DNA from: a virus
Length of the DNA stretch: 64,000 bases
Virus record (IMG/VR): IMGVR_UViG_3300044858_003398
Direction: 5' to 3' (one strand)
Shown: positions 7,250 to 21,686 of the stretch, in pieces
How the letters are laid out: each line of letters begins with the position of its first letter
Numbering within the stretch: position 1 is the stretch's first letter
The notes under the pieces: generated by a model
Databases searched by the model: none
The model's input: the letters and a program-made list of their open reading frames with translations, nothing else
What the model was told of the DNA's origin: nothing
Translations under genes and position numbers: made by a program

Positions 7250-7487
7250 AGAAATTAGAATCAGGGCCGATATTTGGGATTTATGTAATCGAAAACATGC
7301 TTGTGAAGTATCCTCAGCCCCTGATACAGGCGTAGCTACTCAAATCGAGCTTGCTAGACTCATGGGTGAAGCATTTCGGGTGCTATCGCGACACCTAGTC
7401 GCCCCACCAGATGACCATCTTATTTTACAGATTTTTGCTAGTGCTGCTATAGACTCAGACCTCGTCTTTGACGAGGAGACCGACTAA
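7242..7487 (+). CDS. hypothetical protein
   Basis: Last + strand ORF before the convergent operon. Confidence 0.45.
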   Translation: MSEEIRIRADIWDLCNRKHACEVSSAPDTGVATQIELARLMGEAFRVLSRHLVAPPDDHLILQIFASAAIDSDLVFDEETD

Positions 7488-7864
7488 AACGGCGGCAATT
7501 CGTCCGGTGGACCGATCACTACGTCCTTTGGGACGTAGATATCCTTATCAATCATAGAGAAAAGGACCCTATTTGGGTCGGCTGAAGCCGGAGACAAAAT
7601 CTTCGGCTTTTTCTTTTTGGTCTTTGACTTTTTAGGCTTAGTTTTCGGGGACGCGGCCCAGTCGGCGAACTTGTTGACAAGTTCAGTGACGGCCTTAGCC
7701 GTCCCATATCTGCTATAAAGTACTGCAAAGCACTCCCCATGGAGTTCCTCATTATTGAGCCCCTCAGGTCGGTAAGCCCACAGGAGGCCTGCCAAGATAT
7801 TGTCTGACAGGTTATCAATAGCTTTGCCCTTGTGTTTACCACACGGTATGCGATAGGAGGTCAT
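7484..7864 (-). CDS. hypothetical protein with P(F/C)GKHKG motif (DUF3820-like) and basic tail
   Basis: IPCGKHKGKAI; Lys-rich linker; PPF end; ATG overlaps the upstream stop. Confidence 0.5.
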   Translation of the reverse strand: MTSYRIPCGKHKGKAIDNLSDNILAGLLWAYRPEGLNNEELHGECFAVLYSRYGTAKAVTELVNKFADWAASPKTKPKKSKTKKKKPKILSPASADPNRVLFSMIDKDIYVPKDVVIGPPDELPPF

Positions 7865-8292
7865 AATCTCGCTCTGTTTCTCATATTCGTAGATGACTCT
7901 ACTTTTGGCAAATCTAGAAAGACCTGATCGATCCCCAACTCCTGACACACCAATGACTCATTAGAATTCTGGTTGGCTGGATTTCTATCTCCACTATTGA
8001 AAAAAATGATCTGGTTGCCGCCAGACCTAGAGTGGATGAGCCGGAGGCTCTCACAAACACTTGAATCAGTATCAATGGACAATACTACTTCATCGATCCA
8101 CCTAATTGATTCTGCAATTTCTACTCTAGCTAATTCTCCCAATATGGGGACATTACCCTTCAGACGAACCTGAGCATCGTTGTTTACTATAAAAATGAGC
8201 CTATCACATAACCAAGATGCAGCTTTAACATACTGACAATGACCATGATGAATCGGATTTAGATGGCCTGAGGCCACTCCGTATCTAAACAT
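7861..8292 (-). CDS. cytidylyl/adenylyltransferase (HxGH; TagD/RfaE-II-like)
   Basis: SGHLNPIHHGH, VNND, GDR, ESST. Confidence 0.85.
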   Translation of the reverse strand: MFRYGVASGHLNPIHHGHCQYVKAASWLCDRLIFIVNNDAQVRLKGNVPILGELARVEIAESIRWIDEVVLSIDTDSSVCESLRLIHSRSGGNQIIFFNSGDRNPANQNSNESLVCQELGIDQVFLDLPKVESSTNMRNRARL

Positions 8293-8641
8293 GAATACCT
8301 ACCAGCCCTGTATTGCGGACTAGATTGACGGCTATCGCCGTCTGAAGCCCGCTCGGTTTGATATCATTGATCAATACTCTTGGCCCCACAGGAAGCCCCA
8401 TAACGAGTTGATCCCAGAATAGGCCATAAGACGCCAATTGATCCTCTGTAACTCTCCTACAGCCCTCTGGGCGAGCCGTGGTGAGGATGATGTAATAGTC
8501 CTTGGCTCTCCACTCGCAGAACTTCTCTTGAACACCCGGTAAAAGAGATGGGCGTTCTGTCATCATGTGGGGCAGATCAATCAAATGCTCCCATAAGACG
8601 CCATCGATATCTGAGAATATAGTGTGTCTTAATTCCCTCAT
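8285..8641 (-). CDS. small HAD-family phosphatase (capsule-biosynthesis type)
   Basis: DIDGV motif I, TTAR, RVLINDIKP. Confidence 0.8.
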   Translation of the reverse strand: MRELRHTIFSDIDGVLWEHLIDLPHMMTERPSLLPGVQEKFCEWRAKDYYIILTTARPEGCRRVTEDQLASYGLFWDQLVMGLPVGPRVLINDIKPSGLQTAIAVNLVRNTGLVGIHV

Positions 8642-9585
8642 AGTATTTCTGTCCCCACTTTTGAAATCCCCACATCCACAAATCTGGCCTTGTATTTCTC
8701 TTTGATTCGATCCTTAGTGTCCTCTTCCATGATACCAAAGATGAAGCCAGATCCACCAGCACCTAGAAGCTTTCCGCCGATCATACCATCACTTCTGAGA
8801 TCGTCATATATCCTATCGACTTCTGGGCTGGTAATTAGAGGAGATATTTCCTTTTTAGATCTCCAAGAATCATGTAGTAACATAGCTACGAGATCGAGGT
8901 CCTGATCGCAAAAAGCCCTCAAAGCCAGTTTTGCAGTAGAGTGGATCATGCTCTTATCTTTACCGTCATGTGATTTGGCTATCTCGTATGATTTACGAGA
9001 CTTCCCAGTGTAGATGAGAATACTCCTATCCATCATCTTTGACACGAATTCTTCGCTGACAGGGAGCGGGCGAACCTCAAAATCTCCGTGCTTAAATATA
9101 TGAATTGAATTCAGTCCACCATACGCGGCAGCTATAGCATCTTGACAACCTCCTGCCTCCTTTAAGAGAATTCTTTCGATATAGGTGGCCTCATTAGCTA
9201 ACTCTTTCTTGCTCCTAACATCGCCCCTCATCTGATGAATTGCGTTTAGTAGTCCAACAGTAAAAGAGGAAGACGATCCTATACCTGTCTGAGCGGGTAG
9301 ATCGCACATATACGAAATTTCCATTCCGTACTTTATTCCTAAGAACTCCAAGACTCCTCTTACTGCATTATTCTGTATCTGTGAATTGTCCTGTACTGTC
9401 TCAGTTATTGAGTAGGAAACTTTAGTCTCATAGTCCAATATTTCTGGAGTCCTTCTGACGGCAGAATAAGCGTACTTGTCGAGGCCAAAATAAATAAGGA
9501 GGGCTCCATGATCCTTGTAGTATGACAAGTAATCAGTGGACCCTCCGAACAGAGACACTCTAAAGTTGGTTTTAGAGATAATCAT
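8638..9585 (-). CDS. GHMP sugar kinase, HddA-like (heptose-7-phosphate kinase)
   Basis: RVSLFGGSTD, DLPAQTGIGSSSSF, GCQD..AAAYGG, GKLLGAGGSGF. Confidence 0.85.
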   Translation of the reverse strand: MIISKTNFRVSLFGGSTDYLSYYKDHGALLIYFGLDKYAYSAVRRTPEILDYETKVSYSITETVQDNSQIQNNAVRGVLEFLGIKYGMEISYMCDLPAQTGIGSSSSFTVGLLNAIHQMRGDVRSKKELANEATYIERILLKEAGGCQDAIAAAYGGLNSIHIFKHGDFEVRPLPVSEEFVSKMMDRSILIYTGKSRKSYEIAKSHDGKDKSMIHSTAKLALRAFCDQDLDLVAMLLHDSWRSKKEISPLITSPEVDRIYDDLRSDGMIGGKLLGAGGSGFIFGIMEEDTKDRIKEKYKARFVDVGISKVGTEIL

Positions 9586-19847: not shown

Positions 19848-20530
19848 ATTACCCCCTTTAGCTTAACAATATCGTTTTCGATCATACTCTTCGCCATCTG
19901 ATAAATGGCCGCATTATCGGTGGCCCTTCTCCTCATGTGACCCTCTCTGGCGGTATCATCAAAGTCAGACTTACTAAAAGTCCAATGCATATGCTCGACC
20001 AGAACATTATCAAGATAAACTGCCCTACCAACTCCATTAGCTACATCCATAATGTAGTTATCTGAATAGTCAACGCTAAATATAGGAGGGCACAGATATC
20101 CTAATGTCTCATACCATTTGCGATGAAAGAACCCATGAGTTCCTAGGGCTTCTCCATGATGTCCATCATTTGGATAGACATAAGCTATTTTGTCTGGTAT
20201 ACTATCGAACGCTGCCAGAACCACCTTGTCCCATCCATGGGTCCTAAAAACTATATCATCGGCAGCACCCATAAGTACATCAAACTCGGCATGACTAGCA
20301 CAAATATTATGGAGATCGCCATATATAGTTCCGTTTGGGATTTCGACGACCTTAATCGAGACCCCGGACCCGTCTACAAGGACTGAAGCATAATCAAGCG
20401 TCTCGCTATCGCCCTGATCAACGGCTACAACGAACTCAAGAGAAGTATTCGATGTCGTCAGAGCGGAACTGATCATCTTATAGAGGCCGAGCCTCCTTTT
20501 CCTCGTCGGGCAGAGAATGCTTATAGACAT
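19844..20530 (-). CDS. glycosyltransferase family 2
   Basis: ISILCPTRKR, ADD, YSDN, EHMHW. Confidence 0.8.
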   Translation of the reverse strand: MSISILCPTRKRRLGLYKMISSALTTSNTSLEFVVAVDQGDSETLDYASVLVDGSGVSIKVVEIPNGTIYGDLHNICASHAEFDVLMGAADDIVFRTHGWDKVVLAAFDSIPDKIAYVYPNDGHHGEALGTHGFFHRKWYETLGYLCPPIFSVDYSDNYIMDVANGVGRAVYLDNVLVEHMHWTFSKSDFDDTAREGHMRRRATDNAAIYQMAKSMIENDIVKLKGVI

Positions 20531-21357
20531 TCGACCTTCTCCCAAAAAGTTGAAGCGGCGTTATAGCAAGCTTCTGCGAACCCATCTGGGTCCTCATCGT
20601 ACATATGCCGAGCCCCTATTATCCCGTTTGTTAACATCTCGGGAACCCCACATACCATGGCTTCTCCCGCAGATCGGCAAAAGGGCTCATAAATCGGCGG
20701 CATATGATACCAACCACGAACTGAGTTGTAAAGATCAACCATTTGGAAATGATCGACTTGCCCAAGAAAGCTCACGTTTTTAAGCTTCACCCTCTCTTCA
20801 AAACCCGGCCCCCATCCAGCCACTAAGAACCGCTTATCTGGATTCCGCTCTACTACATCGAAGAACTCATGAGTGCCCTTTAGGGGGTGCATGAATCCAG
20901 AGTAAAGAATACAGTCTTCTCTTTTGCCGAACCGATTGCAAAATGACCGATCAATAGGGTCAGGAACAAACTCTACATTAACAAAATAATCCCCGTAGTG
21001 CTTCCTGAAACACTCATAATGGAACCTTGTTAGGAAGAAAGACGCCTTACAGTTCCTCCAAAGGAGAAATCTCTTGTCATTAGACAAGTACCTATTCATA
21101 TCATGTTCAAGTCTTATATGGTTGGGTTGACCATCAAGCCAGTCTACCACATTACCGATTATCTGAGAAATTGCCTCAAGATTTGATGATATGACCCAAT
21201 CATATTCCTTTTGAAAAAGAGAGATATCCCCATCATAATGGAAGACAGAGATCTCATGACCTCTCTTGATACCCTCATCAACTATTAGCTGATTACTTCT
21301 CTGAGCCCCGCCAACTGTATGATGCAGGCCGAAATCAGAAATTAGCAATATCTTCAT
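20521..21357 (-). CDS. glycosyltransferase family 4 (GT-B)
   Basis: GGAQ, KG, EPFCRSAGEAMVCG (E-x7-E). Confidence 0.85.
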   Translation of the reverse strand: MKILLISDFGLHHTVGGAQRSNQLIVDEGIKRGHEISVFHYDGDISLFQKEYDWVISSNLEAISQIIGNVVDWLDGQPNHIRLEHDMNRYLSNDKRFLLWRNCKASFFLTRFHYECFRKHYGDYFVNVEFVPDPIDRSFCNRFGKREDCILYSGFMHPLKGTHEFFDVVERNPDKRFLVAGWGPGFEERVKLKNVSFLGQVDHFQMVDLYNSVRGWYHMPPIYEPFCRSAGEAMVCGVPEMLTNGIIGARHMYDEDPDGFAEACYNAASTFWEKVECL

Positions 21358-21365
21358 TTAGCCAC

Positions 21366-21686
21366 CTAAAATTTAATCTTACCACGAACTATATCAAATA
21401 ACATACACCAATCTGCCGCTTTGGCCCAAATGGGTCGCTTAAAAGCCGCAGGCGTATTCTTTTCAAAGAAGAAATGGCCAGACCAAGCAAACGGATAAAC
21501 CACGAATGGAGTCAATGGTAGTAGTAACCAAAACCACCCACCATTAGCTGTTATCATTGATAAAAACGCTATCGTCATCAATTGGCCTAGAACATGTAAT
21601 CTTCGACATGTTTTATTTTGATGCAAGGTAAGATAGTACCGATAATACTCACTAAATGTCATTTTACTCACCTGTTCTGTATCCAT
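21366..21686 (-). CDS. DUF962/Mpo1-like membrane protein
   Basis: YLTLHQNKTCRRLHVLG, FAWSGHFFFEKNTPAAF. Confidence 0.85.
   Translation of the reverse strand: MDTEQVSKMTFSEYYRYYLTLHQNKTCRRLHVLGQLMTIAFLSMITANGGWFWLLLPLTPFVVYPFAWSGHFFFEKNTPAAFKRPIWAKAADWCMLFDIVRGKIKF

Follow-up and report, generated by a model that had tools for sequence, protein, structure and literature searches.

Organization of the operon

Positions 7484-21686 of the viral DNA analyzed here carry a tightly packed operon of 20 minus-strand open reading frames (ORFs), most of which are predicted to make, modify, or transfer an unusual sugar. This DNA, referred to below as the window, comprises 64,000 nucleotides (nt), bases 34382-98381 of the single 123,595-bp IMG/VR virus record IMGVR_UViG_3300044858_003398, which has a CheckV completeness of 79%. 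None of the intergenic gaps in the operon exceeds about 10 nt, and most neighboring ORFs overlap by 1-29 nt, often as ATGA, in keeping with the contiguous, translationally coupled cluster described in a first-pass annotation of the locus. Base composition is uniform over the operon region, and GC skew is strongly negative between 8 and 22 kb. The best sigma-70-like promoter of the region (22104-22132, minus strand; TTGACC-17-TATACT with an upstream TG) lies upstream. Functions were assigned using Pfam, NCBIfam, and PDB searches, together with AlphaFold2 (AF2) models compared by Foldseek.

In the direction of transcription, the first gene (21366-21686) encodes a 106-residue Mpo1-like protein (DUF962, by Pfam) with a moderately hydrophobic middle part. 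It is followed by a GT4 glycosyltransferase of the GT-B fold (20521-21357; Pfam), a 233-residue GT2-like protein of the GT-A fold (19844-20545; blank in Pfam and assigned because it clusters with the GT2 of the operon), and a GT47/exostosin-like glycosyltransferase (18927-19847; 33.6 bits, with the cut-off at 33.4). The GT2 enzyme itself lies at 16318-17064 (Pfam). A fifth glycosyltransferase (GT), of 302 residues and of an unnamed GT-A-fold family (17433-18341), is blank in Pfam; its AF2 model, with a predicted local distance difference test (pLDDT) score of 87, matches TarP, SpsA, and PcManGT (Foldseek E ~1e-8). All five GTs counted in the first pass were therefore recovered: GT4, GT47, and GT2 by Pfam, the 302-residue protein by its model, and the 233-residue protein by clustering. 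Between these genes lies a class I S-adenosylmethionine (SAM)-dependent methyltransferase (18338-18952). Its Pfam match is weak and its AF2 model has a pLDDT of 68; the model matches exclusively SAM methyltransferases, among them the sugar O-methyltransferase MycF. Sugar O-methylation is its presumed role.

The remaining genes are predicted to activate and remodel the sugar. An RmlC-like cupin (16937-17461; Pfam, PDB) precedes the GT2 gene, and a B12-binding radical SAM (rSAM) protein of an uncharacterised family follows (14859-16343; Pfam, NCBIfam). The best named model for the latter is HpnJ, at 118 bits against a cut-off of 578, and its solved relatives are remote. Next come a DJ-1/PfpI protein (14312-14857), which is also found in the conserved bacterial cassette described below, a cupin of the mannose-6-phosphate isomerase C-terminal type (13698-14315), which may act as a sugar isomerase or epimerase, and the two subunits of a thiamine diphosphate (ThDP) enzyme, one resembling the pyruvate dehydrogenase (PDH) E1 alpha subunit (12902-13744) and the other an E1 beta/transketolase-pyrimidine-binding subunit (12015-12914); all four were assigned by both Pfam and NCBIfam. 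The DegT-family protein at 10889-12028 is read as a pyridoxamine phosphate-dependent 3-dehydratase of the ColD/E1 type (Pfam, NCBIfam, PDB alignment). A small cupin (10510-10896; Pfam, clustering) is about 128 residues long when read from an internal Met; the TTG start listed at 11022 is probably wrong, because the internal Met gives the 128-residue size of the homologues. The last four assigned genes encode a short-chain dehydrogenase/reductase (SDR; 9585-10508; PDB match to 6vo6/6vo8), a GHMP kinase (8638-9585; NCBIfam, PDB), a minimal HAD-type phosphatase of 118 residues (8285-8641), and a nucleotidyltransferase resembling HldE domain II and cytidylyltransferases (7861-8292; Pfam, NCBIfam). 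The phosphatase was recognized by its motifs, with no database match and hence none naming GmhB; DIDGT, TTARP, and ND-K are invariant in 6/6 homologues, and a GmhB-like role is presumed. PDB sequence searches with the HAD protein, the second cupin, and the methyltransferase returned nothing informative. With these assignments, every enzyme class named in the first pass was confirmed by Pfam, NCBIfam, PDB, or fold search.

The final ORF (7484-7866) was listed as 7484-7948 but more likely starts at the ATG at 7866, overlapping the stop of the nucleotidyltransferase gene. It is translationally coupled and has a Lys-rich tail, no homologue of it was found in the relatives of this phage, and it looks unrelated to sugars. 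The earlier figure of about 20 genes thus holds for the ORFs, while the sugar-related genes appear to number 19.

None of the operon proteins has a clear transmembrane segment, which agrees with the earlier view of a soluble cytoplasmic pathway for an unusual sugar. A hydropathy scan of this phage and two relatives returned, among ORFs of more than 133 residues, only the tape measure protein and a fibre-like protein with two or more hydrophobic segments. As the first pass had noted, no flippase, polymerase, or initiating transferase is apparent, in the sense that the three genomes hold no large multi-pass membrane protein of this kind by hydropathy.

The operon belongs to the phage genome

Two independent lake-water runs each yielded a single contig, of 112,619 nt (depth 243) and 96,498 nt (depth 105) respectively, that spans positions 5177-24500 and so bridges both junctions of the operon. 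Most of the sequence is present in 11 runs from 11 different studies, all of lake water. The operon is genuinely phage DNA. That a host lipopolysaccharide (LPS) locus was misassembled onto phage DNA is scarcely conceivable: the bacterial ancestry of the sugar genes is the sole point in its favor, and against it stand the contigs from independent samples that cross both junctions, the uniform base composition, and the presence of the operon at the same site in two diverged relatives.

These relatives are G001, of 142 kb and 94% complete, and G002, of 119 kb. Their replication and structural modules are syntenic with those of this phage and encode proteins that are 30-55% identical to its own. 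In each, a glycan operon occupies the corresponding position with unchanged orientation, immediately ahead of the divergent block of the single-stranded DNA-binding protein (SSB) and a GT4 gene, which bears out the synteny that the first pass had proposed to look for. The G002 operon is collinear with that of this phage and has 19 genes. The G001 operon keeps the activation genes, the SDR, the dehydratase, and the rSAM gene, differs in its tailoring and GT genes, and has an added GmhA gene. Between relatives, operon proteins are 40-70% identical, compared with 30-55% for replication and structural proteins; the rSAM protein (70%), DJ-1 (67%), the dehydratase (66%), and the 302-residue GT-A (62%) exceed the helicase, at 53%, and the structural proteins, the best of which reach about 55%. 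The phage owns this cluster, which is under selection.

The phage encodes a DnaE-type polymerase, a class I ribonucleotide reductase, a UvsX-like recombinase, a DnaB-like helicase, ThyX, and SSB, and a long minus-strand block from about 59 kb onward carries a 1778-residue tape-measure-like protein. With its own polymerase, reductase, and helicase, and with no integrase seen, it looks lytic. Its polymerase is less than 30% identical to that of any phage record, the operon had 0 megablast matches among 50,697 phage records, and tblastn of the rSAM protein against the same records gave just three weak ones. Together with G001 and G002, the phage looks like an undescribed lineage. PHROG searches with eight structural-region proteins were almost matchless, and the capsid and portal proteins of this phage were not identified among them. 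Most of the large structural-region proteins encoded at window positions 59788-63391 and in genome segment 98382-118381 (L003) likewise lack a PHROG match. A scan of viral contigs with E1 alpha patterns returned nothing, the patterns being too specific.

A predicted pathway to a branched heptose

The sugar is most likely a heptose, because the kinase, the SDR, the RmlC-like protein, and the nucleotidyltransferase each point to one; the GmhA gene within the G001 operon, and the GmhA and HddC genes of the bacterial cassette, were also counted in favor of this assignment. The best NCBIfam model for the GHMP kinase is HddA (1e-29, below the equivalog cut-off, as all NCBIfam scores of the heptose-pathway matches are, by a wide margin), and its top PDB matches are the D-glycero-D-manno-heptose 7-phosphate kinases 3k85, 4n3o, and 4usk (HddA, WcbL). 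The RmlC-like protein has as its top PDB matches the GDP-D-glycero-4-keto-D-lyxo-heptose 3- and 3,5-epimerases 8db5, 8dco, and 7m14. The nucleotidyltransferase matches rfaE domain II (2.5e-11) and CTP_transf_like (2.5e-07), and the pairing of an HldE-type nucleotidyltransferase with an HddA-type kinase is an unusual mix. The SDR aligns over its full length with 6vo6/6vo8 (E 1e-59), the next match being at 1e-19. We take 6vo6 to be Cj1427, the GDP-heptose C4-dehydrogenase of Campylobacter jejuni; a text search for the code returned nothing relevant. The SDR is read as a putative nucleoside diphosphate (NDP)-heptose C4-dehydrogenase.

When the DegT protein was aligned with perosamine synthetase, a His was found at the position of the Schiff-base Lys (SLFTAH versus SFFGNK), and ColD and E1 are among its top matches. 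Replacement of the pyridoxal phosphate lysine by His is a hallmark of the ColD/E1 3-dehydratases, and the protein was classified as a 3-dehydratase for this reason. The E1 alpha and E1 beta genes adjoin the dehydratase gene, as expected for the synthesis of an acyl-branched sugar if their predicted activity is correct.

The capsular heptose pathway of C. jejuni comprises HddA, GmhB, HddC, the C4-dehydrogenase Cj1427, the HS:5 C3-dehydratase, C3/C5 epimerases, and C4-reductases (PMC10680097, PMC10440746), and Raushel and co-workers obtained GDP-3-deoxy-4-keto-heptose in vitro with Cj1427 and the HS:5 C3-dehydratase (PMC10680097). In contrast to that pathway, the phage has a nucleotidyltransferase of the HldE-domain-II rather than the HddC family, lacks GmhA and a C4-reductase, and adds the ThDP E1 alpha/beta pair, the B12 rSAM protein, DJ-1, and two cupins; the carrier, moreover, is a phage. 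The phage kinase, 3-dehydratase, and RmlC-like epimerase nevertheless have their best solved or curated matches in the C. jejuni pathway, as does the SDR, in its case only through the presumed identity of 6vo6.

A second resemblance is to the acyl-branched sugars. In the synthesis of yersiniose, erwiniose, and related sugars, a ThDP enzyme places an acyl branch on the C4 ketone of a 3-deoxy-4-keto sugar (PMC9306805, PMC4753412). The operon shares the logic of these pathways (yersiniose with YerE/YerF, erwiniose, caryophyllose, and the two-carbon branches of avilamycin and paulomycin), in which an NDP-3-deoxy-4-keto sugar is formed and then branched at C4 with ThDP. It differs from the yersiniose pathway in that its ThDP enzyme is split into PDH-E1-type alpha and beta subunits, rather than being of the YerE/acetolactate synthase type, and in that its sugar would be a heptose and its reaction is predicted. 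The split PDH-E1 type is known from actinomycete antibiotic clusters. With a single SDR, the operon contains no C4-reductase, and no second oxidoreductase was found in it that could act as a YerF-like side-chain ketoreductase. A ThDP enzyme that branches the C4 ketone would explain the absence of the C4-reductase, and the combination of a single SDR, a PDH-E1-type ThDP pair, and a dehydratase suggests a 3-deoxy-4-C-branched heptose.

A pathway can be proposed on this basis. Heptose 7-phosphate would be supplied by the host GmhA or by a cupin isomerase; the HddA-like kinase would phosphorylate C1, the HAD phosphatase would take off the 7-phosphate, and the nucleotidyltransferase would form the NDP-heptose, the order of these reactions being presumed. 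The SDR would then oxidize C4, the His-type ColD-like dehydratase would remove the 3-OH, and the RmlC-like enzyme would epimerize the product. The E1 alpha/beta enzyme would attach a carbon branch to the C4 ketone in the manner of YerE in the yersiniose pathway, and the B12 rSAM enzyme would methylate or rearrange an unactivated carbon; beyond the identity of the enzymes, this second stage is deduced from the chemistry of their families. Finally, the five soluble GTs and the O-methyltransferase would assemble a short chain. We infer that the product is a 3-deoxy-4-C-branched heptose, further altered by the B12 rSAM enzyme and O-methylated. A phosphonate pathway, for which a short ThDP pair and a B12 rSAM enzyme could also be read, was dropped, as the ThDP genes are of the E1/transketolase type and their neighbors are sugar enzymes.

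Bacterial counterpart of the sugar genes and distribution of the transferases

Relatives of the rSAM protein were found in 55 IMG/VR loci and at least 585 bacterial loci, the bacteria including Pelagibacteraceae (SAR11 relatives), methylotrophs, methanotrophs, Omnitrophota, and Planctomycetales. The gene context was counted in 80 fetched loci out of these at least 585. The rSAM gene was accompanied by a GHMP kinase in 67 of the 80, an SDR in 64, a DegT gene in 58, an HddC-like transferase in 48, E1 alpha in 42, E1 beta in 33 (as a short pair), and GmhA in 11; GT9 LPS heptosyltransferases lay nearby in 21 loci and LptD in 16. A contiguous run in a Candidatus Methylopumilus metagenome-assembled genome (GHMP, cupin, x, rSAM, DJ-1, E1 alpha, E1 beta, DegT, HddC, GmhA, SDR) corresponds to the 11-gene sugar-module set of the phage in nearly the same order. 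No description of the product of this bacterial cassette was found in the literature.

In a FastTree phylogeny of 120 rSAM sequences, the copies from this phage lineage group in a clade by themselves, whose sister clade is proteobacterial, and most other viral copies fall into virus-only clades of 22, 8, and 6 sequences; the tree calls for a minimum of 5-7 switches between viruses and bacteria. The residence of the gene in phages is therefore old. A second, very divergent rSAM paralogue lies beside the cassette in L054 (16886-18703) and in L131/L135, on long branches of the tree.

The transferases tell a different story from the sugar genes, which are of bacterial origin. The 302-residue GT-A has 269 homologues, all metagenomic and none named. 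Searches of 5 bacterial genomes with the cassette did not detect it, and among 400 sampled genomes of the class to which the Methylopumilus genome belongs it was absent (one weak partial match), compared with 9 for the rSAM protein. The 302-residue GT-A, the GT47, and the 233-residue GT-A occur together in only one of the 80 "bacterial" loci, L129, which proved to be the same as phage contig L030, belonging to a T4-like phage whose sequence came from one Prochlorococcus cell. The rSAM, GT-A, and GT47 families recur in L030 and L033, both of them T4-like marine contigs. At least one GT family of the operon therefore appears to be virus-restricted, and the operon would join sugar genes of bacterial origin to phage-restricted transferases.

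The Mpo1-like gene, too, accompanies the cassette in viruses (13 loci) and in none of the 80 bacterial loci. Copies beside the cassette in L011, L013, L015, L016, L018, L023, L025, L029, L033, and L045 were noted; between very different phages they are 57-75% identical and better conserved than the surrounding enzymes.

Acceptor of the glycan

We tentatively favor the reading that the operon is a phage-owned cytoplasmic glycan factory whose chain is placed on the phage's own virion proteins. This last step would be the weakest of the proposed pathway. The lean toward the virion is owed to the context in other phages. In L049, L053, and L054, the genes for terminase, portal, and major head protein (the last matching phrog_3437 at 3e-42) are immediately followed, with no change of strand, by a homologous cassette. 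That cassette comprises a GT, the rSAM protein, E1 alpha/beta, the dehydratase, and the SDR, and in L054 also a transferase and a kinase. The solubility of all the enzymes, the lack of a large multi-pass membrane protein, and the virus restriction of the GT-A family argue in the same direction.

Several points weigh against this reading. The operon of this phage does not lie beside structural genes; it sits within the replication region, on the opposite strand, behind a host-type sigma-70-like promoter, a position that would fit early expression and a role directed at the host just as well. Ser/Thr-rich C-terminal acceptor tails, like those of glycosylated mycobacteriophage proteins, were sought in three genomes, and nothing convincing turned up. 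The sugar module is a copy of a bacterial envelope-sugar cassette, and the Mpo1-like protein may be membrane-bound. On the side of the pathway, no SIS domain (GmhA) was found in G000, G002, G003, or G004, which leaves this genome without that step; the assignment of the SDR leans on the presumed identity of 6vo6; and the proposed roles of the ThDP enzyme, the rSAM protein, DJ-1, and both cupins derive from family membership. The first pass had chosen virion proteins over the host surface; the context in other phages supports that choice, but nothing in this genome itself shows a virion target.

Remodeling of the host envelope by the same pathway is a possibility that we also take seriously, while holding it short of probable. 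The chain would be put on the LPS core, a lipid-linked glycan, or a surface glycoprotein and exported by the host, and the new cell surface could block superinfection or keep progeny off debris. The sugar module mirrors bacterial cassettes that lie beside GT9 heptosyltransferases, LptD, GmhA, and HddC; the promoter is of an early type and the operon lies in the replication region; and the Mpo1-like protein may be membrane-associated. Comparable clusters of cyanophages and pelagimyophages are read in this way in the literature, without experiments (PMC7029224, PMC12801897). Against it, no GT9, initiating transferase, flippase, polymerase, or ligase was found in three genomes (multi-pass proteins by hydropathy only), and the 302-residue GT-A was not found in cassette-carrying bacteria. 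The phage, moreover, looks lytic, and in other phages the cassette lies in a late head operon, where it would be expressed too late to protect the infected cell. The first pass had passed from the lack of an exporter to a target other than the host surface; exporter-type proteins were indeed not found, but the step is not forced, because the module is a copy of an LPS-adjacent cassette and the sugars of the LPS core are attached on the cytoplasmic side of the membrane before the machinery of the host exports them. Soluble enzymes without an exporter or GT9 are compatible with an LPS-core or other inner-membrane-face acceptor as well.

Phage DNA, the other target named in the first pass, fared worse. 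It is very unlikely that the chain serves as a pyrimidine sugar hypermodification, of the sort known from T4, from RB69, and from metavirome clusters in which 5-hydroxymethylcytosine (5hmC) receives heptose. In DNA hypermodification clusters, a kinase/HAD pair, a cytidylyltransferase, and GTs also occur, and the sugar may be a heptose (Pyle et al., bioRxiv 10.1101/2023.12.21.572611; Lee et al., PMC13326640); one such phage set, made up of a kinase/HAD, a cytidylyltransferase, and a GT-B, attaches heptose to 5hmC (bioRxiv 10.1101/2023.12.21.572611). The operon likewise lies among replication genes, and two further conserved GT4 genes are found in the replication block. The base-hydroxylating enzymes of such clusters were not found here, however: a ThyA homologue, a C5-cytosine methylase, and a TET/JBP dioxygenase are absent from the phage (79% complete) and four relatives (one of them 94% complete), and since these enzymes define the known base-modification routes (PMC13326640), a DNA target is disfavored. 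An ordinary ThyX is present, and five GTs with a long remodeling pathway far exceed the known DNA glycans.

Some other acceptor, such as a lipid, a small molecule (giving a glycolipid or natural-product-like compound), or RNA, with the Mpo1-like protein taking part, seems rather improbable, more credible than DNA all the same. The nearest named model of the rSAM protein, HpnJ, belongs to hopanoid-sugar chemistry, with a score far below its cut-off; the Mpo1 family acts on 2-hydroxy fatty acids, and the Mpo1-like gene keeps company with the cassette in viral loci exclusively (13, compared with 0/80 bacterial). The operon, on the other hand, has no lipid- or polyketide-forming enzyme, five GTs suggest an oligosaccharide, and nothing links the operon to RNA.

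Extending the virion reading beyond this lineage is more doubtful. Under this joint proposal, a mobile glycan module shared by unrelated tailed phages (the lake lineage, marine T4-like phages, and small phages with the capsid-adjacent cassette) would combine a bacterial-derived sugar pathway with GTs that include virus-restricted families, and would make an undescribed 3-deoxy, C4-branched, C-methylated heptose for their own virions.

Relation to other viral glycan clusters

Large marine myophages such as P-SSM2, S-SCSM1/2R, and the pelagimyophages carry "LPS" or cell-wall clusters that, like this operon, hold sugar-nucleotide enzymes, radical SAM proteins, and many GTs in lytic aquatic phages (PMC7029224, PMC12801897). 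The present lineage differs in coming from lake water, in its DnaE-type polymerase, and in structural proteins that are nearly PHROG-less; its sugar genes, moreover, are gathered in a single operon whose site is fixed and whose conservation resembles that of a core module. In one of these studies, a DegT-type gene and a radical SAM gene beside GTs were listed as "antibiotic synthesis genes" (PMC12801897); these are probably the same kind of cassette, misread.

Virion glycosylation in mycobacteriophages (Freeman et al. 2023, as cited in PMC12619734) and the glycan clusters of chloroviruses and mimiviruses likewise rely on virus-encoded soluble GTs without export machinery. Mycobacteriophages encode GTs only and borrow host sugars, whereas this phage encodes the sugar pathway too; its operon lies away from structural genes, Ser/Thr-rich acceptor tails were not seen, and its glycan is predicted from genes. 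The cassette of L049, L053, and L054, on the other hand, adjoins a capsid gene, as virion-glycosylation loci do. Serotype-conversion and O-antigen cassettes (GtrABC, Wzx/Wzy) differ from the operon in having a flippase, a polymerase, or a GtrC-type transferase, which were not found in the three genomes by the hydropathy scan, as distinct from a family search.

What is new here is the clear heptose signature, the fixed, core-like place of the operon in a new lytic lake-phage lineage, and the union of a bacterial sugar module with partly virus-restricted GTs. Genes of this kind are usually counted in viromes as "LPS" or "antibiotic synthesis" auxiliary genes without experiments, and for this operon a concrete pathway can be drawn from sedoheptulose/heptose phosphates via enzymes with characterized nearest relatives. 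To our knowledge, no heptose has so far been described whose chemistry combines a ThDP branch with a B12 radical SAM step, and the rSAM-centered cassette occurs in hundreds of bacterial genomes. If the joint proposal of a shared module is true, self-encoded glycosylation of virions with a rare sugar, so far shown for giant viruses, would be a common bacteriophage trait. The product and its acceptor would tell whether aquatic phages glycosylate their particles or re-dress their hosts, and particle glycosylation would bear on adsorption, grazing, decay, and immune recognition. Public lake metagenomes contain the phage at a depth of 100-240x, so there is material on which virion glycoproteomics could be done.

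Leader, neighboring genes, and strain variation

Between the operon promoter and the first gene lies an untranslated leader of about 410 nt (21687-22103, minus strand) without an ORF. A structured RNA or riboswitch in this leader was considered and is unsupported, because its fold energy is ordinary, no better than that of shuffled sequences (z = -0.16), and no homologue of it was found in related loci, G002 having only about 130 nt at this position; Rfam searches with the whole window and with the leader alone gave 0 matches. A divergent promoter (22140-22168, plus strand) stands back to back with that of the operon and heads the SSB/replication block. At the other end, a terminator-like hairpin of the convergent plus-strand unit (7584-7610, plus strand) lies inside the last operon ORF.

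Two GT4 genes lie outside the operon, both on the plus strand. The first (23584-24630) occupies the same place in both relatives at 45-49% identity and may be a partner of the operon. The second (51508-54309) is split by an intein with a LAGLIDADG endonuclease; G001 and G002 have an intein-less form of 546 residues (54-56% identity). Inteins usually occupy highly conserved, important proteins, and this GT4 is for that reason probably important to the phage. A lone minus-strand gene (49278-50342) amid plus-strand replication genes gives matches to HNH/endonuclease VII and DNA-binding proteins and probably encodes a free-standing homing endonuclease.

The strain found in runs X4, X6, and X8 differs from the window in two places at or near the operon. 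There, 95 nt stand in place of positions 6351-7329, which hold the DUF4419 gene (6359-7249) and part of the small ORF after it, so that a presence/absence polymorphism of DUF4419 directly adjoins the operon end. Within the operon, positions 9941-13134 are of equal length in this strain and only about 80% identical, with flanks of more than 99% identity. This divergent 3.2-kb tract stretches from the SDR gene, of which it includes the 5' part, across the small cupin, dehydratase, and E1 beta genes into the end of E1 alpha, and looks like a homologous-recombination patch within the sugar-remodeling genes.

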